A stretch of DNA of 64,000 bases from Chloroflexia bacterium (GTDB lineage: Bacteria > Chloroflexota > Chloroflexia > DTKN01): the NCBI GenBank assembly GCA_041082245.1, contig JBDOIE010000006.1, positions 4,950 through 68,949 on the forward strand. The letters run 5' to 3'. The notes under the pieces were generated by a model. That model worked only from the letters and a program-made list of their open reading frames with translations, was not told the origin of the DNA and made no database searches. Position numbers and translations under genes: made by a program. Positions 5,259 through 55,738 of this stretch are shown here, piece after piece. The stretch's first letter is position 1. Every line of letters starts with the position of its first letter.

Positions 5259-5284
5259 CAGGCCAACTTTCAAACTGGTATAAT
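5255..5284 (+). promoter_or_regulatory. Consensus sigma70-type promoter (TTGACA, 18 bp, TATAAT) for the peptide-ABC operon, followed by a ~165-nt structured leader
   Basis: ttgaca at 5255-5260 and tataat at 5279-5284. Leader hairpin ggcaggttgcttgcttcttcggggcaaggctgcc. Confidence 0.5.
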
Positions 5285-5450
5285 GGCCTTGCTGGCCGGG
5301 GAAAACGTGCCTCCGCCGTTCCGTCGCATAGGTACATGCGAAAGGAGGTGGTCGTTCGTCCGGTCTTGAGCGGCCCTGGCAGGTTGCTTGCTTCTTCGGG
5401 GCAAGGCTGCCGGGGTTCTGGAGGTCGCGATCCGACAGGAGGAGAAGACG

Positions 5451-7151: not shown

Positions 7152-7214
7152 GGTCCTTGAGGGCCATGGCCGGGGCTTTGCGCCCCGGCCATGGCCCCGG
7201 CTCAAGAGGCTGGA

Positions 7215-8249: not shown

Positions 8250-8258
8250 GACAACACG

Positions 8259-9215: not shown

Positions 9216-9224
9216 AAGGGCCCT

Positions 9225-10208: not shown

Positions 10209-10210
10209 GG

Positions 10211-11473: not shown

Positions 11474-12640
11474 ATGCCTTACACGTACACCGTCCTGGGG
11501 GCGGGCCGCCAGGGAACGGCTGCAGCCTACGACATGGGCCGCTGGGGCGACGCCCGGCGCGTCATCCTGGCCGACCGCGATTTCGAGATCGCCCGGCGCG
11601 CTGCGGAGCGGGTGAACCGGCTGCTCGGCCGGGAGGTCGCCGAAGCGAGGGTGGTCGATGTAACCGACCATGCGGCCCTGGAAGCGCTCCTGCGCGGCAC
11701 GGATGCCACTTTGAGCGCTGTGCCCTACATCTACAACCTCGAGGCCACCCGCGCGGCCATCCGCGCCGGCTCGAGCTGGTGCGACCTCGGGGGCAACACG
11801 GAGATCGCCCGCCGGCAGCACGCCTACGACACCGAAGCGCGCGCAGCCGGAGTGAGCGTGATCCCCGACTGCGGCCAGGTGCCCGGGATGGGGACCAGCC
11901 TGATGGTCTATGCGATCGAGCTGCTCGACGAGGCGATCGACGTCTATATGTGGGACGGCGGCATCCCCCAGAAGCCCCGGTCCCCGTTCCCCTACCTGCT
12001 CACGTTCCACATCGCGGGCCTCACGAATGAGTATGCGGAGCCGGCGATCTTTATCCGGGACGGCAAAATCACCCGCGTGGAGCCGATGACGGAGCTGGAG
12101 ACGGTCGAGTTCCCCGAGCCGATCGGCACCCTGGAAGCGTTCGTAGCAGGAGGTGGGACGAGCACCATGCCCTGGGCCTACGAGGGGAAACTACGCACCC
12201 TGCAGAACAAGACCCTGCGCCACCCCGGGCACTTTGCCCAGCTGCGCGCCTTCTACGACCTGGGGCTATGGGATCTGAAACCGATCCGGGTGGGCGATCA
12301 GGAAGTTGTCCCGCGCGAGGTTTTTCACGCCCTTTTCGAACCCAAGGTCGTCTTCCCGGAGGACAAGGACCTGTGCATCGTACGCGTCAAGGCGGTCGGC
12401 AAGAAGGACGGCCACGATGCCGCGGTCGTCGTCGAGATGATCGACTACTACGACGAGGCGACCGGCTTTACGGCGATGGAGCGCGCGACCGGCTGGAGCG
12501 CAGCCATCGTGGCGGAGATGATGGCACGCGGCCAGACCCCGCGCGGCGCGGGCGGGGTGGAAACGATGGTCCCGGCCCGTCCCTTCGTGGAGGAACTGCG
12601 CCGGCGAGGGATCTCGGTGACCGAAACCTGGATCGAATGA
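11474..12640 (+). CDS. Saccharopine dehydrogenase NADP-binding family protein (Lys9 / lysine 6-dehydrogenase / carboxynorspermidine-DH-like)
   Basis: MPYTYTVLGAGRQGTAAAYDM is a Rossmann motif. RBS gaaggagg. Overall Sacchrp_dh architecture. Confidence 0.7.
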   Translation: MPYTYTVLGAGRQGTAAAYDMGRWGDARRVILADRDFEIARRAAERVNRLLGREVAEARVVDVTDHAALEALLRGTDATLSAVPYIYNLEATRAAIRAGSSWCDLGGNTEIARRQHAYDTEARAAGVSVIPDCGQVPGMGTSLMVYAIELLDEAIDVYMWDGGIPQKPRSPFPYLLTFHIAGLTNEYAEPAIFIRDGKITRVEPMTELETVEFPEPIGTLEAFVAGGGTSTMPWAYEGKLRTLQNKTLRHPGHFAQLRAFYDLGLWDLKPIRVGDQEVVPREVFHALFEPKVVFPEDKDLCIVRVKAVGKKDGHDAAVVVEMIDYYDEATGFTAMERATGWSAAIVAEMMARGQTPRGAGGVETMVPARPFVEELRRRGISVTETWIE

Positions 12641-12663
12641 TCTTGCTCTTGGCGGAAAGAACC

Positions 12664-12688
12664 GGGGGCCCGAGCGGTTCGGGCCCCC
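12664..12688. terminator. Candidate bidirectional terminator hairpin between convergent genes (10-bp perfect GC stem)
   Basis: gggggcccga-gcggt-tcgggccccc between the stop at 12640 (+) and the stop at 12719 (-). Confidence 0.45.
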
Positions 12689-12718
12689 TTATCATCTCCA
12701 GGGCAACAGGGGACAGGA

Positions 12719-14176
12719 TCAGCGGGGCGGCAGTCGGTCCATTCCGGCCTTCTGCAGCGCCTTCAGGGTGATATCCTCCAGCTCCTTCACCACCTCGGGG
12801 GCAAGCGGCTTCGGCTGGTAGGAAGCGATCAACGCCTCCACTCGCTCGTGGGCCCGCTCGACGGTGTCTTTGCTCCCCTTCATCTCCCAGTTCCGCCGGA
12901 AATCGCGATCGATCACCTCGCTCGGGATATAGAGCTCCTGCCGGAACCAGCGACGGGTATGCTGCGTCTTCAGGAACTCGCCGCTGTGGCCCACCTGACG
13001 GATGATATCGAGCGCATAGGGGATCTCACGCTCGGCGATCCCGGTGACCAGGCGCTTCGCCATCCCCACAATCTCGGCGTCGATAACCAGTTTCTCCAGG
13101 CTGAAGCAGCTCTCGAAATCGAGCATGCCCGGCCCGGAGATCATGTTGATCCCCGCCAGGGCCCCCAGGATCGCCCCGCTCGCGCTCTCGAGCCCGCACT
13201 GCGTATCGACGATCTTGGCATCCGACATACCCAGGTAGGCATGGGTGGGCAACCCGAGCGACTTGCCGACCTCTGCGTAGGCGCAGTCGAACATCATCGT
13301 TTCGATCGCGCCCATGGGCGTCGTTCCCGTGCGCATATCGAAGGCCGCGGGCGAACCGCCCCACACGATCGGGGAACCGGGCTTGACGAGCTGGTGGATC
13401 GTGATCCCGCTCAGGCACTCTGCCGCGTGCTGCACGATCGAACCGAGCAGCGTAGCCGGCCCTGTGGCGCCGGTGAGCGGCATGCTCACGAGCTCCGCCG
13501 GGACCCCGTGGGCGGCGCAGTCCATCATATTTTCGCAGGTGATCTCGGACCAGAGGAGCGGGGGCGAAGGGCAAACGTCGAACACAGCGATCGGCTTTTC
13601 CGCCAGCGCTTGCTCGCTTCCCGCTACGGCTACCAGCAGGTCCTTCATCACATGCCAGGTCTCTACCGCAAACGCCCCGGTGACGACCGGCTTGCGGGCG
13701 TACAGCAGCACCAGGAAGAGCCGGTAGAGGTCGGCGACCGCCTGGGGGACGTCGGCACAGACCAGTGCCGTGCTCACGGCATCCAGCGCAGGAAGGCTGT
13801 CCGCCAGCTGGATGTACCGGACAAAGTCGGCGGTGTAGGGCGGGCGCGAGGTCTTGGCCCCGTACTCCAGGAATTCGATCGCCGCGGACCCTGGGTCGAA
13901 ATGGACGTCGTCCCCGCCGTAGTGCACGGCCGGCCGGCCCTCCGCATCGTACAGGTAGAACGACTTCGGAGCCGTCTGGACGGCCCGTTCCACCAGGTTC
14001 CCCGGGATGTGGGCCACTTTCTTGGCAGCATCGACGCGTGCGCCGTGGTCGGCAAGCAGCTGAAGCGCACGCTCCGAGTGCACCTGTACCCCCGGGTCTT
14101 CCAGCAGCTGGATCGCCTCGTCGATCACCCGCTGCACGGTTTCCGGCGAAAGGAACTGTACCTTCGGTCTGATCAT
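12719..14176 (-). CDS. MttB-superfamily (trimethylamine methyltransferase-like) corrinoid-dependent methyltransferase, paralog 1
   Basis: MIRPKVQFLSPETVQRVIDEAIQLLEDPGVQVHSERALQLLADHGARVDAAKKVAHIPGNLVERAV... has the MttB/MtgB-like N-terminus and TIM-barrel length (485 aa). RBS gaggagg before the ATG at 14176. Confidence 0.8.
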   Translation of the reverse strand: MIRPKVQFLSPETVQRVIDEAIQLLEDPGVQVHSERALQLLADHGARVDAAKKVAHIPGNLVERAVQTAPKSFYLYDAEGRPAVHYGGDDVHFDPGSAAIEFLEYGAKTSRPPYTADFVRYIQLADSLPALDAVSTALVCADVPQAVADLYRLFLVLLYARKPVVTGAFAVETWHVMKDLLVAVAGSEQALAEKPIAVFDVCPSPPLLWSEITCENMMDCAAHGVPAELVSMPLTGATGPATLLGSIVQHAAECLSGITIHQLVKPGSPIVWGGSPAAFDMRTGTTPMGAIETMMFDCAYAEVGKSLGLPTHAYLGMSDAKIVDTQCGLESASGAILGALAGINMISGPGMLDFESCFSLEKLVIDAEIVGMAKRLVTGIAEREIPYALDIIRQVGHSGEFLKTQHTRRWFRQELYIPSEVIDRDFRRNWEMKGSKDTVERAHERVEALIASYQPKPLAPEVVKELEDITLKALQKAGMDRLPPR

Positions 14177-14196
14177 CGTTTCCTCCTCAACGTCGT

Positions 14197-15387
14197 TCAA
14201 GCGGTACCACTATCGCTGGTCTTGCGCACCGGAGGCTGCCTGAGGAGGCGCAACGCCGCTTCCGCAAGGATCGCTGTGCCGATGGGCAGGCAGCGCTCGT
14301 CGATGTCGAAGCGCGGGTGGTGGGCATGGCGCGGATCGTCCTCGATCCGACAACCCAGCCCGAACATCGCGCCCGGCGCCAGTTCCAGGAAGACGGCGAG
14401 ATCCTCCGCCCCCATCTCGAGGCGCGAAGTGGGCAGGTGCCCCGGGCCGAGCAGATCGGTCACCACCTGGCGGATAACCTCAACCACCGTGGCGTCGCAC
14501 TGCATCGGCGGGCAGCCGACATCGATCCGCAGCCGGTAGTCGCCCCCCAGTGCACGCGCCACGCCCAGGGCGCGTTCGATCTCGGCGTGGATCTGTTTCT
14601 GTACCTCGGGGTCCATGTAGCGGATCGTCCCGCTCAGTTCCACTTTTTCCGGGATGACGTTGTGTGTTTGTCCTCCGTGAATGGACCCGATGCTGATGAG
14701 CGCCGGGTCGGCCGGCCGCAAGCGTCGGGAGACGATCCCGTGGAGGGCGAGGATCACGTGGCCCGCGAGGTAGATCGGGTCGATCACTTCGTGCGGGGCC
14801 GCAGCGTGACCACCCCGGCCCAGCAGGGTGATGTAGAAAGTGTCCACTCCGGCCGAACCCGGGCCGGCGGAGACGGTAATCTCTCCCACGGGGCGGGTCG
14901 CATCGACGTGCGTGGCCAGGACGTATTCCACCCCCTCCATGGCCCCGTCCTCGACCATGCGTGGCGCGCCGCTCCGGCCGCCTTCGTCGTCTGCCTCCTC
15001 CGAAGGCTGGAAGAGCAGACGCAATGTCCCCGGGAAATCCTCCCGTGCCAGCAGGGCCCCTACCCCAAGCACCATCGCGGTGTGGGCGTCGTGCCCGCAG
15101 GCGTGCATTACGCCCGGGTGCTGGGAAGCGTAGGGGACGTCGTTCTCCTCCTGAATGGGCAGCGCGTCCATATCGGCGCGCACTGCCACTACCGGCCGGC
15201 CCTCCCCTCTCTCGGCCACCACCCCGGTACGGCCGACCCCCGTACGGACCCGGTACCCCAGGCCTTGCAGGACCTCCGCCACGCGGCCCGCCGTGCGCAC
15301 CTCCTGGAAGCCCACCTCCGGGTACATATGGAACTCTCGCCGCCAGGCGACGAGCTGTTCTGCGATCTCCTGCGCGCGTTGTAGCAT
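14197..15387 (-). CDS. M20D-family amidohydrolase (N-acyl-L-amino acid amidohydrolase / hippurate hydrolase-like)
   Basis: MLQRAQEIAEQLVAWRREFHMYPEVGFQE...ACGHDAHTAM carries M20D metal-binding motifs. Start chosen at ATG 15387 behind ggaggtg. Confidence 0.8.
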   Translation of the reverse strand: MLQRAQEIAEQLVAWRREFHMYPEVGFQEVRTAGRVAEVLQGLGYRVRTGVGRTGVVAERGEGRPVVAVRADMDALPIQEENDVPYASQHPGVMHACGHDAHTAMVLGVGALLAREDFPGTLRLLFQPSEEADDEGGRSGAPRMVEDGAMEGVEYVLATHVDATRPVGEITVSAGPGSAGVDTFYITLLGRGGHAAAPHEVIDPIYLAGHVILALHGIVSRRLRPADPALISIGSIHGGQTHNVIPEKVELSGTIRYMDPEVQKQIHAEIERALGVARALGGDYRLRIDVGCPPMQCDATVVEVIRQVVTDLLGPGHLPTSRLEMGAEDLAVFLELAPGAMFGLGCRIEDDPRHAHHPRFDIDERCLPIGTAILAEAALRLLRQPPVRKTSDSGTA

Positions 15388-15470
15388 CACCACCTCCGTA
15401 CAACTCCAGGAGCCTATCCCAAACCCCTCGCCGGGTCGGCGAAGGCGGGTAGGCCAGGCCACAACAAGCT

Positions 15471-16898
15471 CTATGTCAACCCGAGGGAAGCGATGAACGC
15501 TTCTCCTCGAGCAATCAGCTCCGCTTGATCGGGCGGAGGAGCTGCCGTCTCAAGGAGTGCAACGGTGTACTCGCGCAGCCGCTCGTCCGCGCGCGGCCGA
15601 CCCTCGGCTCGCCACTTCTCCAGGCTCCAGCGTGGAAAGATCGGGCTGGTGTAATAAGCTTCGCGGTAGTGGCGACGCGTCTGGTCGGCCAGCAGGAAAT
15701 TCCCGCCCGGCCCCACCTGGTCGATCTCCTCGAGCCCGATCGCCTCCTCGTCCAGGAGGAATCCTTCCGCAAAGCGCAGCGCCTGCGCGATCACCTCGTG
15801 AGCATAAACCGCCGTCGCTGGCGAAAACGCTTTCGATGTCAGAGTATCCCCGACAAAGGGGGCCAGGCCTACCTTCCCGATGCAGGAGCTGAGCTGGTTC
15901 ATCCAGTAGGTGTCGGCCGCCAGGAGGTCCGGTCCCCAACCGGTACCGCTGCCCGAGCTTCCGCAGTGCGGAAGCCTGTAATGCGCCATCATCTCCGCGC
16001 AGGCCAGGTTCAAGAGGAAACTCTTCGGCTCGTAGAACGAAACCATCGTCTTCAGGTCGAAGAACGCCGGAAGCATCCCCAGGATGACTGGAGCGCCCTC
16101 GCGTACCAGCTGGCTCAGCACCAGACCGGCCAGGAGCTCCGCCTGCAGAAGCACAAGCATTCCCGCCGGCGTGATCGGCGTGGTCATCCCGGCCATGCTG
16201 TAGTTCGAGTAGATCACCGGAAGCCCGCGCTCGATCGCCTCCACCATCTTGTCCCCGGTTCCCTCGTTGATGATGAGCGGGCTGACCGGGTTAAAATAGG
16301 GAACGACGAACGGCCGGGAAGCCAACTCGCCGCAGAGCGCCTCCAGAAGGTCCAGCACCGCCGGGAAGCGCGCCTCGTCGGAGACCAGGATCACGAGCGG
16401 CTTGGTCGTGTTGGCGACCATTTCCAGGGTGGCGTAGAGGTCGGACACCGGGGCCGGCACGTCCTGCACGATGCCGATGGTCGAGATCACATCGTAGAGA
16501 GGGAGTTGACCGCCCAGCCGCACGATCTGCGCCATATGCGCGCGACCAAAGGGGACGATGTCGTCGTTCCGTGGATCCTGGTAATAAAGCGCGGTTACGC
16601 CGATGCCAAAGCGTGTGCGTTCCTGACCTTCCCCCAACCGGAAGGCCGGCCGTCCGAGCCGGTCGTAGACCTGTACGGACGACGGCGCGCAGCGCAGCGC
16701 CCATTCCACCAGGTCAGGCGGAATCCGCACCCGGCCGTCGCGCACCTCGCCCAACGCCTGTGCAAACAGCGCACGGGCGCGCGGCGAGTCGACCCGCACA
16801 CCCGTGGTCGCGAGGAGGCTCAGCGAATCGCGGTGCACCCGTTCGATCTGTTCCGGGGTCAGGAGCTCAAGCCGCGGCCGGACGTAGCTGCTTTCCAA
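15471..16898 (-). CDS. MttB-superfamily corrinoid-dependent methyltransferase, paralog 2
   Basis: MESSYVRPRLELLTPEQIERVHRDSLSLLATTGVRVDSPRARALFAQALGEVRDGRVRIPPDLVEWALRCAP...; 475 aa. Confidence 0.8.
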   Translation of the reverse strand: MESSYVRPRLELLTPEQIERVHRDSLSLLATTGVRVDSPRARALFAQALGEVRDGRVRIPPDLVEWALRCAPSSVQVYDRLGRPAFRLGEGQERTRFGIGVTALYYQDPRNDDIVPFGRAHMAQIVRLGGQLPLYDVISTIGIVQDVPAPVSDLYATLEMVANTTKPLVILVSDEARFPAVLDLLEALCGELASRPFVVPYFNPVSPLIINEGTGDKMVEAIERGLPVIYSNYSMAGMTTPITPAGMLVLLQAELLAGLVLSQLVREGAPVILGMLPAFFDLKTMVSFYEPKSFLLNLACAEMMAHYRLPHCGSSGSGTGWGPDLLAADTYWMNQLSSCIGKVGLAPFVGDTLTSKAFSPATAVYAHEVIAQALRFAEGFLLDEEAIGLEEIDQVGPGGNFLLADQTRRHYREAYYTSPIFPRWSLEKWRAEGRPRADERLREYTVALLETAAPPPDQAELIARGEAFIASLGLT

Positions 16899-16907
16899 AG
16901 GGTCCTC

Positions 16908-17987
16908 CTATTCCTTCGGCGGTACCCAGGGAGTCAGGGTGTATTCGTAGTAGGTCGTCTCGCACGGCCGTCCCCGGCCGATCCAGGCACGCCGCTCGTT
17001 CAGGTTGATGATGATGCTGAAAACGGTCACCGAGCTGCCGTCGTGCTTGCAGATCGATGCCGGATAGTTTTCGTGGTCGGCAAGCAGCTTTTGAAAGAGC
17101 GTGGGGGAGAGCCGGCCATAGTTCTCCCGCAAGAGCCGGCGTGCCCGGTAGAAACGGATGATCGAGTTGCCGATCCCGTGGGGATTGGCCTCGAAGGCAC
17201 GCATCGGCCACGACAGGTAATGGTTCGTGTGGGCCATAATGTTCCCTTCGACGTAAAGCGGCTCGCAGTCGGTGGCCGATCCTTCCATGCTGTAGATCTC
17301 GCCGCTCGGGTCCGCGATCACGTTGTTATAGTTCGAGGCGCGCAGCGGCAGAAGGCATGCATCCATCGCCTCGCCCAGCCGCTTGGCCGCCAGGATCGCC
17401 CGCGCGATCAGCAGGCGCGGGACACCCGGCCGGATGTCGCGGCAAGATACCGCGTTGCCCGTCATGCTGATGCCCGCAGCGTTGAATCCCGCGCTGAAGC
17501 CCAGGCCCCCGATCGACACCCCCAGGAACTCCGGATCATCCCCGGCCTGCACCTGGAAAATCGCCAGGTGTTCCTCGGCTTCCGGTGCGGTGTCGTTCGT
17601 GTGCGCCACCAGGGTGGAGCCATCCACGGTGGCCCTTCCGCGCGCGGCCATATCGGTGCAGCCCCGCAGGAGTACCGTCCCTGCACCCCAGGCAGCCGGC
17701 TCCCACAGCTCCTCGCACACCCCCAGGAAGACATGCTCGAACGGCAATCCGGAACCTTCGGCAATTCCCTCCAGTTCTTCGACAAAGTGCGGGTAAACAC
17801 TCCGGCTGTGGGCCAGGCAGAGGCGACCTTTGAGCAGCATATCGTCCCACGTCACGCCCGGTGGCAGGTGCGTTTCCATCCACGCAAGCGTCTGCTCGAG
17901 CTGGCTTTTCATGATCTCGCCGATCTGGCGGCCTACCTCGCGGTAGGAACCACGGATCTGATAAAGTGGGATCGGGCTCGCTGCCAT
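16908..17987 (-). CDS. Peptidase C45 family Ntn-hydrolase (acyl-CoA:6-aminopenicillanic acid acyltransferase-like)
   Basis: MAASPIPLYQIRGSYREVGRQIGE...VLLRGCTDMAARG fits the C45 family with a Gly-Cys autoproteolysis site. RBS ggaggtga before the ATG at 17987. Confidence 0.7.
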   Translation of the reverse strand: MAASPIPLYQIRGSYREVGRQIGEIMKSQLEQTLAWMETHLPPGVTWDDMLLKGRLCLAHSRSVYPHFVEELEGIAEGSGLPFEHVFLGVCEELWEPAAWGAGTVLLRGCTDMAARGRATVDGSTLVAHTNDTAPEAEEHLAIFQVQAGDDPEFLGVSIGGLGFSAGFNAAGISMTGNAVSCRDIRPGVPRLLIARAILAAKRLGEAMDACLLPLRASNYNNVIADPSGEIYSMEGSATDCEPLYVEGNIMAHTNHYLSWPMRAFEANPHGIGNSIIRFYRARRLLRENYGRLSPTLFQKLLADHENYPASICKHDGSSVTVFSIIINLNERRAWIGRGRPCETTYYEYTLTPWVPPKE

Positions 17988-18009
17988 AACCTCACCTCCT
18001 TTCTTCCCA

Positions 18010-19665
18010 TCAGCCACGGTGCCGCAGTACGCGGCCCGGCAGGGCACCGGTATGCTCGCCTCCGTCGATCACCGGTACGCCGTTCACCAGGACATAGTCG
18101 ATCCCTTCGGCATAGGCGTGCGGATAGTTCTCAAAGGGATAAACGTGCGGGTAAAGGTTCGTCGCGCGGTCCCGCACCCGCTCCAGGTCGAAGACGAACA
18201 GGTCCGCCCAGGCACCCGGCCGTATGACGCCGCGGTCGTGGAGGCCGAAGCGCTGGGCCGGAAACGAGGTCATCTTGCGGATCGCCTCTTCCAGCCGCAG
18301 AACCCTTTGCTGACGCACATAGCGTTCCAGCACCCCGGGGAATTCCCCGTAACTGCAGGGCGAGTAGGGCGGAGGGTCGTTCAGGAAGCCGTAAGGGGCA
18401 AGGACCTGCCCGTCGGAGCAGATCATGACCAGCGGGTGCTGCAGCAGGATGCGGATGTTCGCCTCGTCGATGTAGTCAAAGATCGCCTCGGCCTCGTGCC
18501 CGTTCTCGACGATCAGGTCGAAGTAGGCGTCGAACGGATCTACCCCGCGTTCCCGGGCGACCGCTTCGACGGTCTTGCCCACCGCCCAGGGCGTCCGGGG
18601 TGCGTGCAGGATCGTGATCCGCTCCCAGCGCCCGTGCTTGAGCAGGCTCGCCGGTCCAAACGCCGGACGACGATCGCGGACGATCTCCTCGCGCACCAGG
18701 CGTCGCATCTCCGGGTCCCGCAACCGGGCGGCGATCTCTTCCGCCGGCAAATCCTGCATCGCCTGCGGCAGGGCTCCGGTGAGCGCCGGCCCCAGGTCCG
18801 TATGTACGTCGTTGTCCACGGTGACGTCCTGGCCGGCCGCACGTGCCTCCTCCACCAGCCTCAGGGTCGCGTGCGCATCGCACGGGGCTCCGTACTTGGG
18901 GGCATTGTGCGAGATCTGCACCGGCAACCCCGCCTCCCGGCCGATACGGATCGCCTCCGCGACCGCCTCGAGGACCGTCTCCCGCTCGCCGCGTACGTGG
19001 GAGGCGTACAGGCCGTGGTAGCGCGCCGCAACGCGTGCCAGAGCCACGATCTCGTCCGTCTGGGCAAAGCACCCCGGAGGATACACAAGTCCGGTCGAAA
19101 GGCCGAAAGCGCCCGCTTCCATCGCTTCCGCGAGCAACGTCTGCATCCGCGCCAGTTCTTCCGGGCGTGGGGCGCGCTCCTCGTATCCCATGACGGCGAT
19201 GCGGAGCGCCGAATGCCCGGCCAGAGAAGCGATGTGGATCGCAAGCCCCCCACGCTCCAGTGCCCGCAGGTACTGCGCGAAGGTGCGCCATCGCCAGTGG
19301 ACACCCGGCCCGTCCGCGTGCCGCCCCCAGAAGCGACGGATCTCCTCAAAGTGCGCGTCGTCCACCGGTGCAGGCGACATGCCACAGTTCCCGATGACTT
19401 CGGTCGTCACGCCCTGGCGCACGACGCTTTCCGCCCGGCGGTTGATCAGGATGGAAAGGTCCGAGTGGGTGTGCACATCGATGATGCCCGGGGCGACGTA
19501 GCGGCCGTCCAGGTCGATCACCCGCTGCCCACGCAGCGATCCCGCTGCCCCGATCGCCGCGATGCGGCCACGCCGGATGCCTACATCCCCCCAGTACCAG
19601 GGGTTCCCGCAGCCGTCGATGATCCGCGCGTTCGCAAGCACCAGGTCCAGCGTCGCCTCGGGCAT
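18010..19665 (-). CDS. N-acyl-D-amino-acid deacylase (D-aminoacylase) family metal-dependent amidohydrolase
   Basis: MPEATLDLVLANARIIDGCGNPWYWGDVGIRRGRIAAIGAAGSLRGQRVIDLDGRYVAPGIIDVHTHSD... has the amidohydrolase HxH motif and a D-aminoacylase C-terminal region. Start placed at the internal ATG 19665 behind gaggtga; the longer track ORF N-terminus is Arg/Gly-rich junk. Confidence 0.8.
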   Translation of the reverse strand: MPEATLDLVLANARIIDGCGNPWYWGDVGIRRGRIAAIGAAGSLRGQRVIDLDGRYVAPGIIDVHTHSDLSILINRRAESVVRQGVTTEVIGNCGMSPAPVDDAHFEEIRRFWGRHADGPGVHWRWRTFAQYLRALERGGLAIHIASLAGHSALRIAVMGYEERAPRPEELARMQTLLAEAMEAGAFGLSTGLVYPPGCFAQTDEIVALARVAARYHGLYASHVRGERETVLEAVAEAIRIGREAGLPVQISHNAPKYGAPCDAHATLRLVEEARAAGQDVTVDNDVHTDLGPALTGALPQAMQDLPAEEIAARLRDPEMRRLVREEIVRDRRPAFGPASLLKHGRWERITILHAPRTPWAVGKTVEAVARERGVDPFDAYFDLIVENGHEAEAIFDYIDEANIRILLQHPLVMICSDGQVLAPYGFLNDPPPYSPCSYGEFPGVLERYVRQQRVLRLEEAIRKMTSFPAQRFGLHDRGVIRPGAWADLFVFDLERVRDRATNLYPHVYPFENYPHAYAEGIDYVLVNGVPVIDGGEHTGALPGRVLRHRG

Positions 19666-19670
19666 CGCTC

Positions 19671-21128: not shown

Positions 21129-21161
21129 CCGATTCCTCCTGGGGACGGCACTTGCCCCTGC

Positions 21162-21809
21162 TTACGCCCCTACCAGTCGCCTGGCCACCGCCACCGCGCC
21201 AATGGCATCTTCGCTGAACCCTTCCGCCCCGATCTCCTCGGCCCAGGATGCAGTCACCGGGGCGCCGCCGACCATGACCTTCACCTTCGGGCGAAGGCCG
21301 GCCGCTTCCAGGGCCTGGATCACCTCTCGCTGGCGGAGCATGGTGGTTGTAAGGAGTGCACTCAACCCGACAATGTCGGCATCGACCTCGCGCGCCTTGG
21401 CGACGAACCGCTCTGCGGGGACGTCCACGCCGAGGTCGTAGACCTGGAAGCCGCTGGCGGCAAGCATCGTCCCCACCAGCGTCTTGCCGATCTCATGGAT
21501 GTCCCCCTGGACCGTGCCCAGTACGACTTTGCCGAGCGTCTTCCGCTCCGTGCCCCGACGGGCCATTTCCGGCTCCAGCGTGGCCACCGCCGCCTTCATC
21601 GCCTCGCCGGCCAGCACGAGGTCCGGGAGGAACATCTCGCCCTTGGCAAACTGATCCCCTACATAGTTCACCCCGACCACGAACCCCTTGTTGATCGCAT
21701 CCAGGGGATCGATGCCCTGCTCGATCGCCTGCTGCGCGAGCTTTCGCGCCGCGTCGATGTCGCCGTCCACGATGCTCTGCGCCATAGCCCGGAAGAGTTC
21801 TTCGGACAC
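21162..21809 (-). CDS. Cobalamin-binding corrinoid protein (MtbC/MttC/MtgC-like; B12-binding_2 cap plus Rossmann-like B12-binding domain)
   Basis: ...DAARKLAQQAIEQGIDPLDAINKGF...GEMFLPDLVLAGEAM...VVLGTVQGDIHEIGKTLV... has the DxHxxG His-on cobalamin-binding motif. Start proposed at GTG 21809 behind aaggaggg. Confidence 0.8.
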   Translation of the reverse strand: MSEELFRAMAQSIVDGDIDAARKLAQQAIEQGIDPLDAINKGFVVGVNYVGDQFAKGEMFLPDLVLAGEAMKAAVATLEPEMARRGTERKTLGKVVLGTVQGDIHEIGKTLVGTMLAASGFQVYDLGVDVPAERFVAKAREVDADIVGLSALLTTTMLRQREVIQALEAAGLRPKVKVMVGGAPVTASWAEEIGAEGFSEDAIGAVAVARRLVGA

Positions 21810-21944
21810 GGTGACCCTCCTTTGTCCAAAACCGATCGATCCTCGCAACGCGTTGGCCGGCGCGGGGTCGCACCGGCGCGCCGTGCATCTTACCACAGCT
21901 CTGCACGGCTGTCAAACGGCCCTTTGCAAATCGACGTAAAGGAG

Positions 21945-21973
21945 TTGAAAAGACGCGCATCCTATGGTAAAAT
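21945..21973 (+). promoter_or_regulatory. Promoter for the Lrp/AsnC gene (TTGAAA, 17 bp, extended -10 TGgTAAAAT) inside the divergent control region shared with the corrinoid operon
   Basis: ttgaaa at 21945-21950 and taaaat at 21968-21973. Confidence 0.45.
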
Positions 21974-22036
21974 GCCCGCAAAAGGACGCAAACCGAAGCC
22001 AGGGAACGTTTTGGGCGCGCAGGTGTTTGCGCTCCG

Positions 22037-22541
22037 GGGAGGTACGATGGACGACCTGGATCGGCTCATCCTGCAGACGCTGCAGCAGGACGGCCGGACA
22101 CCGTTCCGCCAGATCGCCCGGGAAGCGGGCGTCTCCGAGACGACGATCCGCAGCCGGTACAGGCAGCTTGTCGCCCAGGGGATCATCCGCACGGTGGGGA
22201 TCGTGGACCCCTACGCCCTCGGGTTCCAGGCCCCGGCGCTGGTGGGGGTATCCGCCGAGCCGGGGCGAATCGACGCGGTCGCCAGGGCGATCGCCGCGCT
22301 CCCCGAGGTGAGCTACCTTGTGATGACCCTGGGTTCCTGGGATCTGGTGATCGAGGTGTTTTGTCGGGACCTTCCCCACCTGAGCCGGCTGATCACCGAG
22401 CAGATCCACAGCATCCCGGGCGTGCGCAGCACCGAGACGCTGATGATCGCACGCAGCTACAAGCTCAGCTACCGCTGGTCCCCCTCTCCCGTGGAGGAGG
22501 ACGAGGGCTCCCTCGAAATCGACGCGAGCGATCCGCGCTGA
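22037..22541 (+). CDS. Lrp/AsnC family transcriptional regulator
   Basis: MDDLDRLILQTLQQDGRTPFRQIAREAGVSETTIRSRYRQLVAQGIIRTVGIVDPYALGF... has the HTH_AsnC domain plus a RAM domain. Confidence 0.85.
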
Positions 22542-22574
22542 TACGTCCGGGTTCGTGGATAAGGAGGAAAGACC

Positions 22575-23957
22575 GTGTCCATTGCCGTCGAGAGACCGAC
22601 CGCCGCAGAGCAAGCGCTCTGGCCAGCACCCCCGCTCCCCGCGCCGCTCCTGGTGACCGAGATCCCCGGGCCGAAGGCACGCGCGCTGATCGAGGCCGAC
22701 GAACGGGTGACCTCTCCTTCGCTCCCGCGGGCCTTTCCGCTCGTCGTAGACCACGCACAAGGGTGCGTGGTGACCGACGTCGACGGCAACCGCTTCCTGG
22801 ACCTCGCTGCCGGCATCGCCGTGTGCGCGACCGGCCATTGCCACCCCCGGGTGGTCCAGGCGATCCGGGAACAGGCGGGCCGTCTGATCCATATCTGCGG
22901 GTCCGACTTTTACTACCGCCCCTATGCCGATCTGGCCGCACGGCTGACCTCCCTGGCGCCCGGGCCCGGCCCCTGGCGCGCGTTCCTGACGAACTCGGGT
23001 GCGGAGGCGGTCGAAGCCGCGCTCAAACTGGCCCGCCATGCTACCCGACGACACCGCTTCATCGCTTTCCTGGGCGCCTTTCACGGCCGTACCCTGGGCA
23101 CAGTGAGCCTCACAGCGAGCAAGGCAAAATACCGCCAGAGCTTCGGCCCGCTCCTGCCCGACGTCACCCACGTTCCTTACGGCGACTGCTTTCACTGCCA
23201 CTTCCACCTGCGGTATCCAGAGTGCGGACTCTGTTGCATTGCCTATATCGAGGAGCAGATTCTCACCCGGGTCGCGCCCGCGGAGGACGTCGCGGCGATC
23301 ATCGTGGAACCGGTCCTCGGCGAAGGCGGCTACATCGTCCCACCGCCCGATTGGTTACCCGCGCTGCGCCGGCTCTGTGACCGCCACGGCATCCTGCTGA
23401 TCGCCGACGAAGTGCAGAGCGGCATGGGCCGCACCGGCCGGATGTTCGCGGTCGAGCACTTCAGCGTGGTTCCGGATATCCTCACGCTGGCGAAAGGGAT
23501 CGCTTCCGGCATGCCGGTCGCTGCGATGCTCGCCCGGGCCGAGCTGATGACCTGGCCCAGGGGCGCGCATGGGAGCACCTACGGCGGAAATCCCGTAGCC
23601 TGCGCCGCCGCCCTGGAGACGATCGCTCTGCTCGAAGAAGGGCTGATGGCGCACGCGGCCCGGCTGGGGGCCGATCTGCTCACCTGCCTAAGGGCGATCG
23701 CCGACCGCCACCCCATCCTGGTGGACGTACGCGGGCTGGGCCTGATGATCGGCCTGGAGTTCGCCACGCCTGCACAGGCATCCGCCGTGGCATGGGAGTG
23801 TTTCCGCCGCGGTGTCATCGTTCTGGAATGTGGCGACCAGGCGATCCGCCTCAGTCCGCCGCTCGTCCTGAGCAACAAAGAAGCGGAGGTCGCCCTGCAA
23901 ATCCTGGAAGAGGCGATCGCCGCAGTAGAACAGGGCGGCGCAGGGGAACAGTCCTAG
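22575..23957 (+). CDS. Class III aminotransferase (4-aminobutyrate / omega-amino acid transaminase-like)
   Basis: ...LIADEVQSGMGRTGRMFA... is the PLP-lysine region. GTG start behind aaggagg. Confidence 0.8.
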   Translation: MSIAVERPTAAEQALWPAPPLPAPLLVTEIPGPKARALIEADERVTSPSLPRAFPLVVDHAQGCVVTDVDGNRFLDLAAGIAVCATGHCHPRVVQAIREQAGRLIHICGSDFYYRPYADLAARLTSLAPGPGPWRAFLTNSGAEAVEAALKLARHATRRHRFIAFLGAFHGRTLGTVSLTASKAKYRQSFGPLLPDVTHVPYGDCFHCHFHLRYPECGLCCIAYIEEQILTRVAPAEDVAAIIVEPVLGEGGYIVPPPDWLPALRRLCDRHGILLIADEVQSGMGRTGRMFAVEHFSVVPDILTLAKGIASGMPVAAMLARAELMTWPRGAHGSTYGGNPVACAAALETIALLEEGLMAHAARLGADLLTCLRAIADRHPILVDVRGLGLMIGLEFATPAQASAVAWECFRRGVIVLECGDQAIRLSPPLVLSNKEAEVALQILEEAIAAVEQGGAGEQS

Positions 23958-23966
23958 GAGGTCCGA

Positions 23967-24878
23967 ATGAAACAGATGAGCATGCGCGAAGCGATCGCGG
24001 CGTTCGTCCACGACGGCGACACTGTGGCCATCGAAGGCTTTACCGCCTGCATCTGCTTTGCGGCTGCCCACGAGATCATCCGCCAGGGACGGAAAGAGCT
24101 GACCCTCTGCCGGATGACCCCCGACCTCGTCTACGATATGATGGTAGCCGCCGGGTGTGCACGAAAACTCGTCTGCTCCTACATCGGCAACCCGGGCGTC
24201 GGTTCCCTGCATGCGATCCGCCGCGCGGTGGAAAAGGGCATCCCCGCTCCTCTGGAGCTGGAGGAGTACTCCCACTTTGGTATGGTCGCCCGCTACACCG
24301 CGGGTGCCTACCGCTTGCCCTTCTTCCCGCTGCGTTCCTACCAGGGCAGCGACCTGCCGCGCGTCAACCCGTTCATTCGTTCTGTACAGAGCCCGTACGG
24401 GGACGGGGAGGTAGCCGTTGTACCGCCGTTGAACCCCGACGTGACGATCGTCCACGCTCAGCGGGCTGACCCCGATGGGAACACTCATCTTTGGGGGCTG
24501 CTCGGGGTACAGAAGGAAGCCGCGTTTGCCGCGCGGCACGTGATCGTCGTGGTGGAAGAGATCGTGCCTCCGGACGTGATCCGTTCCGATCCGAACCGCA
24601 CGATCATCCCCGGGCTGATCGTGGACGCCGTGGTACACGAACCGTACGGCGCACACCCCTCGTATGTACAGGGCTATTACGATCGGGACAACGCCTTCTA
24701 CCTGCGCTGGGACGAGATCAGCAGGGACGAGGCCACGACACGCGCCTGGTTGGAAGAATGGGTCTACGGGGTTCCAGATCGGGCCGCCTACGTGGCCAAG
24801 ATGGGGACGGAGCTGTGGGAACGCCTCCGCCCGGGGGAGGCTTTCGCCCACCCGGTGAACTACGGGCGTTACGCCTGA
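23967..24878 (+). CDS. CoA-transferase subunit A (glutaconate / 3-oxoacid CoA-transferase family I)
   Basis: MKQMSMREAIAAFVHDGDTVAIEGFTACICFAAAHEIIRQG... Confidence 0.75.
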   Translation: MKQMSMREAIAAFVHDGDTVAIEGFTACICFAAAHEIIRQGRKELTLCRMTPDLVYDMMVAAGCARKLVCSYIGNPGVGSLHAIRRAVEKGIPAPLELEEYSHFGMVARYTAGAYRLPFFPLRSYQGSDLPRVNPFIRSVQSPYGDGEVAVVPPLNPDVTIVHAQRADPDGNTHLWGLLGVQKEAAFAARHVIVVVEEIVPPDVIRSDPNRTIIPGLIVDAVVHEPYGAHPSYVQGYYDRDNAFYLRWDEISRDEATTRAWLEEWVYGVPDRAAYVAKMGTELWERLRPGEAFAHPVNYGRYA

Positions 24879-24899
24879 GGCACGAGCAAGGAGAACGCC

Positions 24900-25664
24900 A
24901 TGGACGGGTACTCGCCTTCCGAGATGATGATCGTATCCGCCGCCCGGGCCCTCGCGGGGGTGCGCACGGTGCTGGTCGGCGTGGGGCAGCCGAACATCGC
25001 TTGCAACCTCGCGCTGCGCACGGTGGCGCCGGATTTGAAGCTCCTCTACGAGAGCGGCGTATATGAAGCCCGGCCGGCCCGCTTGCCCCTTTCCATCGGC
25101 GACCCGACGCTCGTGAGCGGCGCCACGCTCGTCTGTTCCCTGGCGGACCTCTTCGGCCTCTTCCTGCAGGGCGGGCGCGTGGAGGTCGCCTTCCTGGGCG
25201 GTGCCCAGATCGACCGTTTCGGCAACCTGAACACGACCGTCATCGGGGACTATGCCCGGCCCAAAGTGCGTCTGCCGGGGAGCGGCGGTGCCTGCGAGAT
25301 CGCCATCCACGCCGGCCGGGTTTTTGTCATCATGCCGCTCAGCCGGCGGAGCTTCGTGGAACGGCTCGACTTTGTCACCACCCCTGGCTACCTCGACGGG
25401 AAAACCTCCCGCGCCGCCCTGGGTATGCCCGGGGCCGGACCGCACCTGGTGGTCACCGACAAGTGCATCCTGGGCTTCGACCCGGAAAGCAAAGAGATGG
25501 TGCTGCAGCGCCTCCATCCCGGGGTCGAGCTGGAAACGGTGCTCCGAGAGGTCGGCTGGAACCTGCGGGTCGCTGCCGACCTGCGAGAGACCGAGCCCCC
25601 CACGGCGGAGGAGCTGCGCATCCTGCGCGAGGAACTCGATCCCCAGGGGATCTACCGTCGCTAG
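24900..25664 (+). CDS. CoA-transferase subunit B
   Basis: [41 protein letters not shown]... Confidence 0.75.
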
Positions 25665-25681
25665 CCAAGATAGGAGGTCCT

Positions 25682-26872
25682 ATGGACGTGAAGGAGATCG
25701 TGATCCTTTCGGCCGTGCGGACGCCGATCGGCAACTTCGGGGGCGGCCTGAAGGATGTCCCGGCTGCTCGCCTCGGGGCGGTGGCCGCCCGGGCCGCGAT
25801 CGAGCGCGCGGGGATCACCCCCGATCAGGTCGACGAGGTGATCATCGGCTGTGCCCGCCAGGCAGGAAACGGGCCGAACGTGGCCCGCCAGGTGGCCTGG
25901 CACACCGGCATCCCCGTCGACCGGCCGGCCTTTACGGTGAACAAGGCCTGTGCCAGCGGAATGAAAGCGGTCACGCTCGCCGCGCAGTCGATCCTCACCG
26001 GGGAGAACCGCATCGTGCTGGCCGGCGGCGTGGAACAGATGTCGCAGATCCCCTACCTCCTGCTCAAGGCGCGCTGGGGCTACCGGCTGGGAGACGATAC
26101 CCTGGTGGATGCGATGTACCGCGATGGATACTTCTGCCCGCTTGCGGAGATGGTGATGGGCGAGACCGCGGAACTCCTCGCCGAGCGGTACGGCATCAGC
26201 CGTGAGGAACAGGACCGCTTTGCCCTCGAAAGCCACCGCAAGGCCGTGGCGGCCTGGGAAAGCGGCGCCTTTGCCGAGGAAGTCGTCCCTGTAGATGCCC
26301 CCGGGGAGAAAGGAGGCACGGTGCGCGTCGAGCGCGACGAGCGGCCCCGGCCCGACACCACCCTGGAGAAGCTCGCCCGCCTGAAGCCCGCTTTCCGCCC
26401 GGACGGCACGATCACCGCGGGCAACGCCTCCGGAATCACGGACGGGGCTGCGGCGCTGGTGCTGGCTTCGGCCGAGACAGCCTCCGCCCTGGGCCTGCGG
26501 CCGCTCGCCCGGCTGCTCGGGTTCGCTTCCGCAGCCGTGCACCCCCGGGAAATGGGCCTGGGGCCGGTCCCCGCTACCCGGAAGCTGCTCTCCCAGACCG
26601 GACTCACGCTCGCCGACCTGGAGCGGATCGAGATCAACGAAGCGTTTGCTGCGCAGGTGCTGGCAGTGGAGAAGGAACTCGACTGGGACGTCGAGCGGCG
26701 CAACGTCCACGGGGGCGCCGTCGCCCTGGGGCATCCGACCGGCTGCACCGGCGCGCGGATCCTGGTCACCCTGCTCCACGCGCTGCGCACGCACGACAAG
26801 ACGATCGGGCTGGCGACCCTGTGCGTGAGCGGCGGCCTCGGGATGGCGGTCGCCCTCGAGCGGCTCTCCTGA
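25682..26872 (+). CDS. Acetyl-CoA C-acetyltransferase (thiolase II)
   Basis: [21 protein letters not shown]..., active-site Cys region [12 protein letters not shown]-terminal ...[12 protein letters not shown]. Confidence 0.85.
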
Positions 26873-26886
26873 AGGAGGCGGTCCCC

Positions 26887-28224
26887 TTGGAATCGCACGT
26901 TTTCTTGCGGCGCGCTTCTTTCCCTCATCCAACAGCGGTCCGGGGCGAAGGCGTCTACCTGTGGGACGCGGCCGGCCGGCGCTACCTCGATGGCTCCGGA
27001 GGGCCGGTGTGTGTGAACATCGGGCACGGCGTCCAGGAGGTCGCACGCGCGATGGCCGAGCAGGCCCAGGCCGTCGCCTATGTCCATGGCACCCTTTTTA
27101 CGACCGCTGCCCTGGAAACGTACAGCGCCCGGCTGGCACCCCACGTGCCGATGGACCGCCCGCGCTTCTACTTCCTCACGAGCGGTTCGGAGGCGGTCGA
27201 GGCGGCGATCAAGTTCGCCCGCCAGCTGCAGGTAGCCCGCGGGGAAGTTTCGCGCGAGGTCGTGATCGCGCGCTGGGGATCGTACCACGGGGCTACCCTG
27301 GGGGCGCTCGCCGTGACGGGAAAGCCTTCTATGCGCCGGCTTTTCGCCCCCCTGTTCCGCGACCAGCCGCACATCCCGCCCCCTTACTGTTACCGCTGCC
27401 CGTTCCACACCACCCACCCGGAGTGTGACCTCGCGTGTGCCCAGGCGCTGGAGACCGAAATCCTGCGCCAGGGGCCGGAGCGCGTGGCGGCGTTCCTTGC
27501 CGAACCGGTGAGCGGCGCCACCCTGGGGGCAGTCGTGCCGCCGCCCGGCTACTGGCCCCGCGTCCGGGAGATCTGCGACCGCTATGGGGTGCTCTTGATC
27601 GCCGACGAGGTGATGACCGGCTTCGGGCGCACCGGAAAATGGTTCGGCATCGAGCACTGGGGAGTCCAGCCCGACCTGATGACGCTGGGGAAAGGGGCTA
27701 CCGGTGGGTATTTCCCGCTTTCCATCCTCGCTGTGGCGGAAGCGCATGTCCGTACGGTCATCGAGGCCCACGGGGATTTTCAGCACGGCGGGACCTTCTC
27801 GCACCACGCGGTCGGCGCGGCGGCCGCGCTGGCGACGCTGGATTACCTGGAAAAGCACGATCTCGTGGCGGCCGCGGCTTCCCGCGGGGCGTATCTGGGC
27901 GCACGCCTTCGGGAGAGATTGGAAGATCTCCCCCACGTGGGCCAGGTGCGTGGCCTGGGGATGATGTGGGGAATCGAGTTCGTGGCCGACCGGGAAAGCC
28001 GTGCCCCGTTCCCGCCCGAGGCCCACGTGGCACAGCGGATCTGCGACCGGGCGTTCGAGCATGGACTGATCCTCTATCCCGGCCACGGAGGGGCGGACGG
28101 GATCCGTGGAGACCACTTCATGGTCGCACCGCCCTTTGTCATCACCGAGGCCCAGATCGACGAACTTGTCGATCGCCTCGCCGAGGCATGCCTGGAGGTT
28201 TTCTCCCACCTCTCCCCGGGCTAA
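26887..28224 (+). CDS. Class III aminotransferase (omega-transaminase family)
   Basis: ...LIADEVMTGFGRTGKWFG.... TTG start 8 nt after aggagg; a longer upstream ORF would overlap the thiolase. Confidence 0.7.
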   Translation: MESHVFLRRASFPHPTAVRGEGVYLWDAAGRRYLDGSGGPVCVNIGHGVQEVARAMAEQAQAVAYVHGTLFTTAALETYSARLAPHVPMDRPRFYFLTSGSEAVEAAIKFARQLQVARGEVSREVVIARWGSYHGATLGALAVTGKPSMRRLFAPLFRDQPHIPPPYCYRCPFHTTHPECDLACAQALETEILRQGPERVAAFLAEPVSGATLGAVVPPPGYWPRVREICDRYGVLLIADEVMTGFGRTGKWFGIEHWGVQPDLMTLGKGATGGYFPLSILAVAEAHVRTVIEAHGDFQHGGTFSHHAVGAAAALATLDYLEKHDLVAAAASRGAYLGARLRERLEDLPHVGQVRGLGMMWGIEFVADRESRAPFPPEAHVAQRICDRAFEHGLILYPGHGGADGIRGDHFMVAPPFVITEAQIDELVDRLAEACLEVFSHLSPG

Positions 28225-38644: not shown

Positions 38645-38662
38645 GGAAGTGGGGTTGCAGCG

Positions 38663-43571: not shown

Positions 43572-43577
43572 GGCACC

Positions 43578-47713: not shown

Positions 47714-47884
47714 CCTCGCTTTCCTGTTCGGGCTGGTCAGGGTTATGATACCCCAGGCGGTAGGGGGTGTCAACTTGAGCGGACAAGGACTGCCAGATGG
47801 GACGTAGCGACCCCTGCGGCAAGCTGCAAAGTCGAAATGCCCGCTCGGCTAGCCGCGGGACGCATACGGATTGCAGTCGGTCGC

Positions 47885-55670: not shown

Positions 55671-55738
55671 GGAGCCGCGAGAGCTCGCGGTCCGGTTAAG
55701 CGCGCTGGCCTCACAGGGTACAAGCGAGACCGCTTGAG

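Follow-up and report, generated by a model that had tools for sequence, protein, structure and literature searches.

A 64-kb stretch of contig JBDOIE010000006.1 from a Chloroflexota bacterium (~65% GC; hereafter the window) carries a ~23-kb block of genes, referred to below as the island (~5.25–28.2 kb). The island is made of three adjacent transcription units: an importer unit that ends with a saccharopine-dehydrogenase-family gene, a seven-gene operon harboring three methyltransferases of the MttB superfamily, and, divergent from the latter, an operon that starts with the gene of an Lrp/AsnC-family regulator. Inside every unit the genes are closely packed. Coding frames in the window were called by third-position GC, then by Pfam and NCBIfam matches, and all the genes listed by an earlier first-pass annotation were found where it had placed them. 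The family-level gene identities, the operon layout, the conserved back-to-back promoters, and the co-location of the genes across lineages are direct observations. Judging from sequence, we favor with moderate confidence a reading in which the island is one linked catabolic system, which would take up, deacylate, N-demethylate, deaminate, and cleave (in a coenzyme A (CoA)-dependent manner) an acylated, N-methylated, and probably lysine-derived compound.

The MttB operon

The MttB operon is encoded on the minus strand, and its genes are separated by gaps of at most 33 bp or by short overlaps. In the order of transcription, they are:

21162–21809, minus strand: corrinoid protein of 215 amino acids (aa) (Pfam B12-binding and B12-binding_2)
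19671–21128, minus strand: MttB-1 (Pfam MTTB, PF06253, 8e-92)
18010–19665, minus strand: Amidohydro_3 metal amidohydrolase of the D-aminoacylase type (Pfam Amidohydro_3)
16908–18047, minus strand: C45 (AAT-like) autoproteolytic Ntn acyltransferase/hydrolase (NF040521, 187 bits, cut-off 85)
15471–16898, minus strand: MttB-2, a rare divergent paralogue (Pfam MTTB, 5.7e-61)
14197–15462, minus strand: M20 N-acyl-amino-acid amidohydrolase of the ILR1/YxeP type (TIGR01891, 352 bits, above cut-off)
12719–14200, minus strand: MttB-3, a non-pyrrolysine MttB-superfamily methyltransferase (Pfam MTTB, 1e-86)

The corrinoid protein scores 225 bits against TIGR02370 (cut-off 215) and harbors the DxHxxG motif in the form GDIHEIG. 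In NCBIfam it is matched best by MtgC, with a score (241 bits) that falls short of the cut-off of 310. The gene starts with a GTG codon at 21809 with the ribosome-binding site AAGGAGG, and the corrinoid proteins of its relatives are 214–215 aa long.

The three MttB paralogues share just 28–30% pairwise identity. Assignment to the pyrrolysine-containing MttB proteins was rejected for all three, as their frames are not interrupted by UAG and their scores against TIGR02369 (448, 216, and 392 bits) stay under the cut-off of 525. Among solved structures, MtgB is the nearest to both MttB-1 (267 bits) and MttB-2 (131 bits), and the trimethylamine methyltransferase 7XCL is the nearest to MttB-3 (225 bits, versus 214 bits for MtgB). 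In MtgB, glycine betaine is bound by residues Y97, R312, H348, and F356 (PMC13080624). The aligned residues are G/S/L/S in MttB-1, V/C/P/S in MttB-2, and S/H/S/L in MttB-3; identity with the glycine-betaine enzyme was thus also rejected, none of the four residues being kept in any paralogue. The residue set of each MttB is nevertheless invariant or nearly so inside its own subfamily. From these alignments, the three MttBs are predicted to harbor three distinct conserved pockets, none of them MtgB-like.

The three amidohydrolases all belong to families that cut the amide bond of N-acyl-amino acids. Among solved structures, the Amidohydro_3 protein comes closest to D-aminoacylase 1M7J (250 bits) and to the N-acyl-D-glutamate deacylase 3GIP, and the M20 protein to 1XMB and 1YSJ (~234 bits). 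Orthologues of the M20 protein occur in 21 related loci, and those of MttB-2 were found in L002, L012, L057, and L111.

The shared control region and the Lrp-led operon

The MttB operon had been proposed to share a control region of ~230 bp with a divergent Lrp gene. This region is indeed present and measures 237 bp when counted from the GTG start of the corrinoid gene. On its other side lies the right-hand unit (22047–28224, plus strand), with the Lrp gene first and the omega-aminotransferase gene last:

21810–22046, no strand: shared control region, 237 bp, with back-to-back promoters
22047–22541, plus strand: Lrp/AsnC-family regulator (PF13404, HTH_AsnC-type, 1e-15; PF01037, AsnC_trans_reg, 1e-19)
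22575–23957, plus strand: class-III aminotransferase of the GabT/ornithine-aminotransferase type (Pfam Aminotran_3, 1e-124)
23967–24878, plus strand: CoA-transferase A, glutaconate type (Pfam CoA_trans, PF01144)
24900–25664, plus strand: CoA-transferase B, glutaconate type (Pfam CoA_trans, PF01144)
25682–26872, plus strand: thiolase (acetyl-CoA C-acyltransferase; Pfam Thiolase_N and Thiolase_C; TIGR01930, 480 bits, above cut-off)
26821–28224, plus strand: class-III omega-aminotransferase, start codon uncertain (Pfam Aminotran_3, 2e-94)

Within the control region, the minus-strand promoter (21915–21887) consists of TTGACA, a 17-nt spacer, and TAAGAT, and the plus-strand promoter (21945–21973) of TTGAAA, a 17-nt spacer, and TAAAAT, each with a TG before the −10 box. 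A consensus scan of the region returned 2 promoter-like sites, against 0.1 expected from shuffled sequences. The divergent promoters lie 30 bp apart, and both are kept in seven aligned loci whose coding genes are ~80% identical, TTGACA and both extended −10 boxes being invariant or nearly so. An 8-bp palindrome, TTTGCAAA, is located between the two −35 boxes (21924–21931) and is a candidate operator. An Rfam scan of the whole window returned zero RNA families, so that no riboswitch accounts for the regulation.

The Lrp protein has both hallmark domains of its family, an N-terminal AsnC-type helix-turn-helix and a C-terminal ligand-binding (RAM) domain, and reaches none of the cut-offs of the NCBIfam equivalogs LrpA, AsnC, and LysM. 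Its gene is divergent from MttB-1 or from the corrinoid gene in 11 non-redundant loci (the window, L002, L008, L053, L049, L060, L056, L111, L068, L036, and L057). The regulator probably controls both divergent promoters, its binding there being predicted.

The remaining products of this operon were assigned as follows. The first aminotransferase matches PRK05769 (590 bits, above cut-off) and is closest, among solved structures, to 7VNO (391 bits) and to a number of GabT proteins. CoA-transferase A scores 171 bits against GctA (1POI) versus ~24–29 bits against the ScoA/AtoD type. CoA-transferase B harbors an ESG motif with Glu51, which we take to be the equivalent of the catalytic Glu54 of GctB. 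Cys/His/Cys catalytic motifs are found in the thiolase translation, and the omega-aminotransferase matches PRK07483 (490 bits, above cut-off), its nearest structures being 3I4J and omega-transaminases.

The importer unit and the dehydrogenase gene

The third unit encodes a predicted ATP-binding cassette (ABC) importer followed by the saccharopine-dehydrogenase-family enzyme:

5255–5284, plus strand: promoter-like site (TTGACA, 18-nt spacer, TATAAT, TG before the −10 box; 12/12 consensus positions)
5388–7151, plus strand: family-5 (Opp/Dpp/Nik-type) ABC substrate-binding protein (Pfam SBP_bac_5, 3e-79)
7191–8249 and 8259–9215, plus strand: two ABC permeases (Pfam BPD_transp_1, OppC_N)
9225–10208 and ~10205–11398, plus strand: two ABC ATPases, the start of the second being uncertain (Pfam ABC_tran and oligo_HPY in both)
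11474–12640, plus strand: saccharopine-dehydrogenase-family enzyme, 388 aa (Pfam Sacchrp_dh_NADP, Sacchrp_dh_C)
12664–12688, no strand: GC-rich hairpin with a 10-bp stem including 9 G–C pairs

The importer that the first-pass annotation had mentioned upstream of the dehydrogenase is present at 5388–11398, outside the range of 11474–28224 to which that annotation referred. Its promoter-like site is 100 bp 5' of the binding-protein gene. The extended −10 form TGGTAnnAT is common to all three island promoters. An operator common to the importer promoter and the Lrp region was also considered, and no claim is made for it, the TTTCAAA/TTTGCAAA likeness being vague and seen by eye. In NCBIfam, the binding protein matches Opp4A, NikA, and CntA, each under the cut-off. 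Its orthologues (56–71% identity) are found within or beside MttB operons in L047, L074/75, L051, and L111, and the importer lies inside the MttB operon itself in L047, L074/75, and L041.

The dehydrogenase gene starts with an ATG at 11474, preceded by the ribosome-binding site GAAGGAGG, in agreement with the start given previously. It is the final gene of the importer unit, on the same strand and after a 75-bp gap in which no terminator was predicted. The nearest solved structure, at only 101 bits, is 3ABI, presumably the lysine 6-dehydrogenase of Pyrococcus, although the literature on PH1688 gave no confirmation. No NCBIfam family is matched, and homologues carry the JGI automatic name 'lysine 6-dehydrogenase'. 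As had been stated, this gene is convergent with the MttB operon (11474–12640, plus strand, versus 12719–14200, minus strand), and the hairpin located in the 78 bp that separate the two units is a probable bidirectional terminator.

Conservation of the island in Chloroflexota

A scan of species-representative genomes provided 47 MttB-1 loci and a metagenome scan provided 52, to which three look-ups added six further places. All window proteins were compared with these loci by tblastn, 96 loci being left once duplicates were removed. They are from Chloroflexota throughout, except for one bin labelled Aminicenantes. This contig (L028, DQHV01000312.1, Candidatus Aminicenantes) carries a MttB-1 homologue at 76% identity, and mis-binning or gene transfer are possible explanations for its label. 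MttB-1 is conserved very widely: among the best 120 matches listed for it, identity is 75–100%, and the few named ones are Chloroflexota metagenome-assembled genomes.

The core that is kept broadly consists of the corrinoid protein, MttB-1, and a gene of the MttB-3 subfamily, which comes after MttB-1 in 40 of the 47 genome loci. Frequent extras among the 96 loci are an upstream GntR/FCD regulator (25 loci), an S9 peptidase (15), a further MttB accompanied by M20 (M20 in 21), and a methyl-tetrahydrofolate:corrinoid methyltransferase (11). A Pterin_bind gene was located in 13 related loci, the copies of L051 and L020 scoring above the PRK07535 cut-off. The amide hydrolases that recur within MttB operons are of the M20, S9, C45, Amidohydro_3, amidase, and M28 families. 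An alternative operon recurs around the MttB-1 core in L015, L018, L020, L025, and L045. It runs from a GntR/FCD regulator through the corrinoid protein, MttB-1, an MttB-3-type gene, an S9 peptidase, a further MttB, and M20 to the methyl-tetrahydrofolate:corrinoid methyltransferase, and it is preceded by NuoF-like, ferredoxin, and molybdopterin oxidoreductase genes.

Adjacency to MttB-1 was counted only in loci with at least 5 kb upstream, 8 of which have a MttB-1 of at least 79% identity and 43 a MttB-1 below this value. CoA-transferase A is beside MttB-1 in 7/8 versus 1/43 loci (Fisher p = 5e-7, kinship between loci being ignored), the thiolase in 6/8 versus 1/43, Lrp in 6/8 versus 2/43, and the first aminotransferase in 5/8 versus 3/43. 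The clustering of flanking genes with MttB-1 is thus beyond chance. That the flanks are co-conserved with the MttB operon, a point on which the first-pass annotation had made its case depend, is borne out by their recurrence beside MttB-1 in at least six lineages (the window with L002 and L008; L053; L051; L049 with L060; L056; and L111), whose MttB-1 proteins share 76–83% mutual identity, identity in the whole sample going down to 63%. The recurring set comprises Lrp, the aminotransferases, CoA-transferase A/B, the thiolase, the saccharopine-dehydrogenase-family gene, and the Opp importer.

Gene order within the island varies by lineage, as do the genes outside it: the outer flanks are PyrD in the window, Pyr_redox_2 and a glycosyltransferase in L049, and patatin and GNAT in L111. 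The dehydrogenase gene lies behind the importer in the window and L111, on the MttB strand behind MttB-3 in L053, and behind Lrp in L036. In L049, L060, and L111, MttB-1 is present and the corrinoid gene is not in the locus, so that these genomes must encode the partner of MttB-1 at another site. L051 and L056 have additional genes for DUF333 and aldehyde:ferredoxin oxidoreductase, the latter locus with a creatininase-family gene as well. In L051/L052 and L056, a DUF333-containing protein of 517–578 aa is encoded between CoA-transferase B and the thiolase. Other arrangements also exist. In L059, the aminotransferase/CoA-transferase/thiolase set is in a different order, at 44–66% identity, and is separated from MttB-1 by genes for an M28 peptidase and an amino-acid permease. 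In L068, L003, and L046, only aminotransferases are kept beside the corrinoid gene, with Lrp in L068 alone.

A lysine clue in sister loci

A radical S-adenosylmethionine (SAM)/LAM_C gene is found directly after MttB-1 in L051/52 and directly upstream of the C45 gene in L003, L046, L056, and L062. The copies of L003, L051, and L056 score 580–608 bits against the AblA-type lysine 2,3-aminomutase equivalog TIGR03820 (cut-off 525), and those of L046 and L062 are 93–95% identical to the scored ones. Their positions are:

L003, 7615–8928: lysine 2,3-aminomutase
L046, 13124–14476: lysine 2,3-aminomutase
L051, 11493–12779: lysine 2,3-aminomutase
L056, 14794–16104: lysine 2,3-aminomutase
L062, ~5522: lysine 2,3-aminomutase

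Together with the JGI name of the dehydrogenase homologues, the aminomutase of these sister loci lends indirect support to the idea of a lysine-related substrate. The lysine-dehydrogenase-like gene, the GabT/ornithine-type and omega-aminotransferases, the GctAB-type CoA-transferase, and the aldehyde:ferredoxin oxidoreductase of L051 and L056 point to a carbon skeleton that would be a lysine-type diamino or omega-amino acid. A literature search found no paper tying MttB proteins to methyl-lysine or trimethyllysine.

Proposed function and alternative explanations

In the reading that we favor, the Opp/Dpp-type ABC importer would bring in a small amide-linked amino compound, from which the three N-acyl-amino-acid-type amidohydrolases would take off acyl or peptidyl groups. 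The three MttB paralogues would then move N-methyl groups onto the single corrinoid protein, and the lysine-6-dehydrogenase-like enzyme and the two omega-aminotransferases would deaminate the diamino or omega-amino acid thereby set free, which most likely derives from lysine. Finally, the oxo-acid would be activated by the GctAB-type CoA-transferase, and the thiolase would yield acetyl-CoA. The functional linkage of the units is supported; the substrate class, the step order, and the action of the CoA-transferase and thiolase on the product of the MttB operon are predictions from gene content.

Several results weigh against this reading. In the 64-kb window, tblastn and Pfam found no methylcorrinoid:tetrahydrofolate methyltransferase (Pterin_bind), and no aldehyde dehydrogenase or other aldehyde-oxidising enzyme is encoded there. 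No window gene scanned with Pfam harbors a RamA-type reductive activase domain, which may lie elsewhere, and tblastn found no lysine 2,3-aminomutase homologue in the window. The 'complete route' to acetyl-CoA announced by the first-pass annotation was thus overstated, given that the window lacks a second methyltransferase, an activase, and an aldehyde-oxidising enzyme. Regarding conservation, the adjacency counts are not independent, given the common ancestry within the close clade. Below 79% identity, MttB-1 is in most loci accompanied by a GntR regulator and S9/M20 peptidases and by none of the flanking genes. Among three long contigs, one (L113) has its dehydrogenase homologue away from MttB; that of L112 has another MttB gene close by, along with genes for an amine oxidase and pyridoxal-phosphate-dependent decarboxylases. 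CoA-transferase A is conserved at 81–86% in very many Chloroflexota, and in four of four other Chloroflexota contigs, picked on length alone, the CoA-transferase A/B and thiolase trio is stand-alone (83–84% identity) among housekeeping genes, with FHA, YajC, and HypF around it and no MttB, Lrp, or aminotransferase nearby. Since it stands alone elsewhere, the trio may be a general module that merely sits in the island and was kept by this clade next to the MttB operon.

These stand-alone copies fit the main alternative, an explanation by descent, which we consider less likely than the favored reading. The Lrp-led operon would then be a general module for omega- or beta-amino acids or for 3-oxoacids (e.g. 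acetoacetate), juxtaposed once with the MttB operon, and the two operons would have a promoter region in common, not a pathway. A single ancestral event fits the orientation shared by the window, L049, L051, L053, L056, L060, and L111 (thiolase, CoA-transferase B, A, in some the aminotransferase, Lrp, then the divergent MttB operon), and the near disappearance of the association below 79% MttB-1 identity points the same way. However, the island persists over lineages that have diverged by 17–24% in a very conserved protein, while its flanks and content change. The reordered, low-identity set near MttB-1 in L059 and the loci that have only aminotransferases beside the corrinoid gene also speak against a single inherited juxtaposition, as does the slot behind Lrp, which stays occupied by a class-III aminotransferase even at 56–59% identity, its neighbors being at ~80%. 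By contrast, it appears very improbable that the MttB operon simply demethylates glycine betaine in the manner of MtgB, or another quaternary amine by a known system, and that the hydrolases and flanking genes are irrelevant to it. Whereas the nearest structures (MtgB or, for MttB-3, 7XCL) and the subthreshold MtgC match of the corrinoid protein are what such a system would offer, the betaine-binding residues are all replaced by sets conserved per subfamily, the three MttBs all fall under the TIGR02369 cut-off, and amide hydrolases recur within MttB operons. If anything still less credible is a role in biosynthesis or solute cycling, e.g. of osmolytes of the N-epsilon-acyl-beta-lysine type, with the aminomutase making beta-lysine and the C45 protein serving as acyltransferase. 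In methanogens, acetyl-beta-lysine is synthesized by means of AblA, and in sister loci an aminomutase of this type directly precedes the C45 acyltransferase/hydrolase gene; but the importer, the three hydrolases, the two aminotransferases, the thiolase, and the aldehyde:ferredoxin oxidoreductase of sister loci indicate degradation, and the aminomutase is not in the window.

Within the favored reading of a linked catabolic island, a more specific version can be formulated, which we regard as quite doubtful: the three MttBs would demethylate a lysine-type compound stepwise to the primary amine, and the product would enter an undescribed route. Candidate substrates would be lysine with three, two, or one methyl group at N-epsilon, or a beta-lysine that is both methylated and acylated. 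Deamination of lysine or beta-lysine would give 3-oxo-6-aminohexanoate, from which the CoA-transferase and thiolase would produce acetyl-CoA and 4-aminobutyryl-CoA, and the released 4-aminobutyrate would be converted to succinate semialdehyde by the GabT-like aminotransferase. If true, all the genes of the Lrp operon would have a part in this route, as would the aminomutase and aldehyde:ferredoxin oxidoreductase of sister loci. We know of no MttB-superfamily system that strips successive N-methyl groups from a lysine-type compound.

Comparison with known systems

The closest counterpart of the MttB operon is the MtgB/MtgC/MtgA system of Desulfitobacterium hafniense (2QNE, 9YCE; PMC13080624), which likewise combines a non-pyrrolysine MttB-superfamily methyltransferase with a small DxHxxG corrinoid protein. 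Unlike this system, the island has three paralogues that lack the betaine residues, three interleaved amidohydrolase genes, and no MtgA-type gene in the window. In Eubacterium limosum, the MttB paralogues MtcB, MtpB, MtyB, and MthB act on separate substrates, each enzyme taking one methyl group off a free quaternary amine and passing it to corrinoid proteins (PMC8604678, PMC12155760). As they are described, these systems are set apart from the island: clustering with genes for N-acyl-amino-acid hydrolases, an aminomutase, a lysine-dehydrogenase-like enzyme, or an aminotransferase, CoA-transferase, and thiolase is not described for them.

The hydrolytic and regulatory part of the island has its counterpart in the Doe cluster, with which it has the deacylase/aminotransferase/Lrp logic in common, the MttB genes being found in the island only. 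In ectoine degradation (DoeA/B/C/D/X), an amidohydrolase deacetylates an N-acetyl-diamino acid, a class-III aminotransferase acts next, and the cluster is under the control of an Lrp/AsnC regulator. Membership of the Doe family was rejected, as the M20 protein scores 239 bits against the DoeB2 cut-off of 550 and no DoeA-like gene was found; the island has neither an ectoine hydrolase nor a semialdehyde dehydrogenase.

Lysine fermentation clusters comprise KamA, KamDE, Kdd, Kce, Kal, AtoAD, and a thiolase, with a variant using a 3-aminobutyryl-CoA aminotransferase. The likeness lies in the joint presence of an aminomutase (in the sister loci), a class-III aminotransferase, a two-subunit CoA-transferase, and a thiolase. 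Membership was again rejected: the KamA homologue is not in the window, and KamDE, Kdd, Kce, and Kal were not seen in the window or the annotated loci. The CoA-transferases also differ, being of the GctAB type in the island and of the AtoAD type in lysine fermentation. The subunits of GctAB from Acidaminococcus fermentans (1POI) are ~300 and ~250 aa long, as in the island. Against the PcaF 3-oxoadipyl-CoA thiolase models, the island thiolase reaches ~403–411 bits, under the cut-offs, and the CoA-transferase matches the PcaI and PcaJ models weakly (38 and 35 bits). By analogy, the island would work like a corrinoid demethylation system of the MtgB or MtcB type joined to a Doe-like deacylase/aminotransferase/Lrp scheme.

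Surroundings of the island

To the left of the island lies a TetR/ABC-2/HlyD efflux set, and to the right PyrD, then GDPD, DnaJ, HIT, NusA, IF-2, RbfA, RibF, and many glycosyltransferases. On the minus strand, a 690-aa open reading frame (ORF) at 37772–39844 has coding-like composition and matches nothing in Pfam. As the well-supported RibF gene (38663–39613, plus strand) overlaps it on the opposite strand, it is probably a shadow ORF. A single ORF at 39610–40719 (minus strand) harbors an isochorismatase domain at its N-terminus and GNAT acetyltransferase domains at its C-terminus, and comes before a class-I SAM methyltransferase gene (40716–41486). Three tandem paralogues at 41508–47773 encode PMT_2/TPR membrane glycosyltransferases of ~690–730 aa, and a fourth PMT_2 gene lies further along (~55700–57400). 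They sit in a region with marked AT skew and lower GC (48–58 kb), which also holds GT87, GT2, GT4, and lysyl-phosphatidylglycerol-synthase-like genes.

Implications for the MttB superfamily

Genomes and metagenomes encode very large numbers of MttB-superfamily proteins. To our knowledge, substrates are known for only a handful of them, and all are free methylamines or quaternary amines. The amide hydrolases that always accompany the paralogues of the island and, in one clade, the lysine-type enzymes provide testable clues to a new substrate class, suggested to be acylated or peptide-linked N-methyl amino compounds. The conserved back-to-back promoters and the Lrp regulator offer a simple handle for finding the inducer. 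More generally, these clues suggest how the abundant uncultured Chloroflexota of sediments and digesters may recycle methylated nitrogen compounds.

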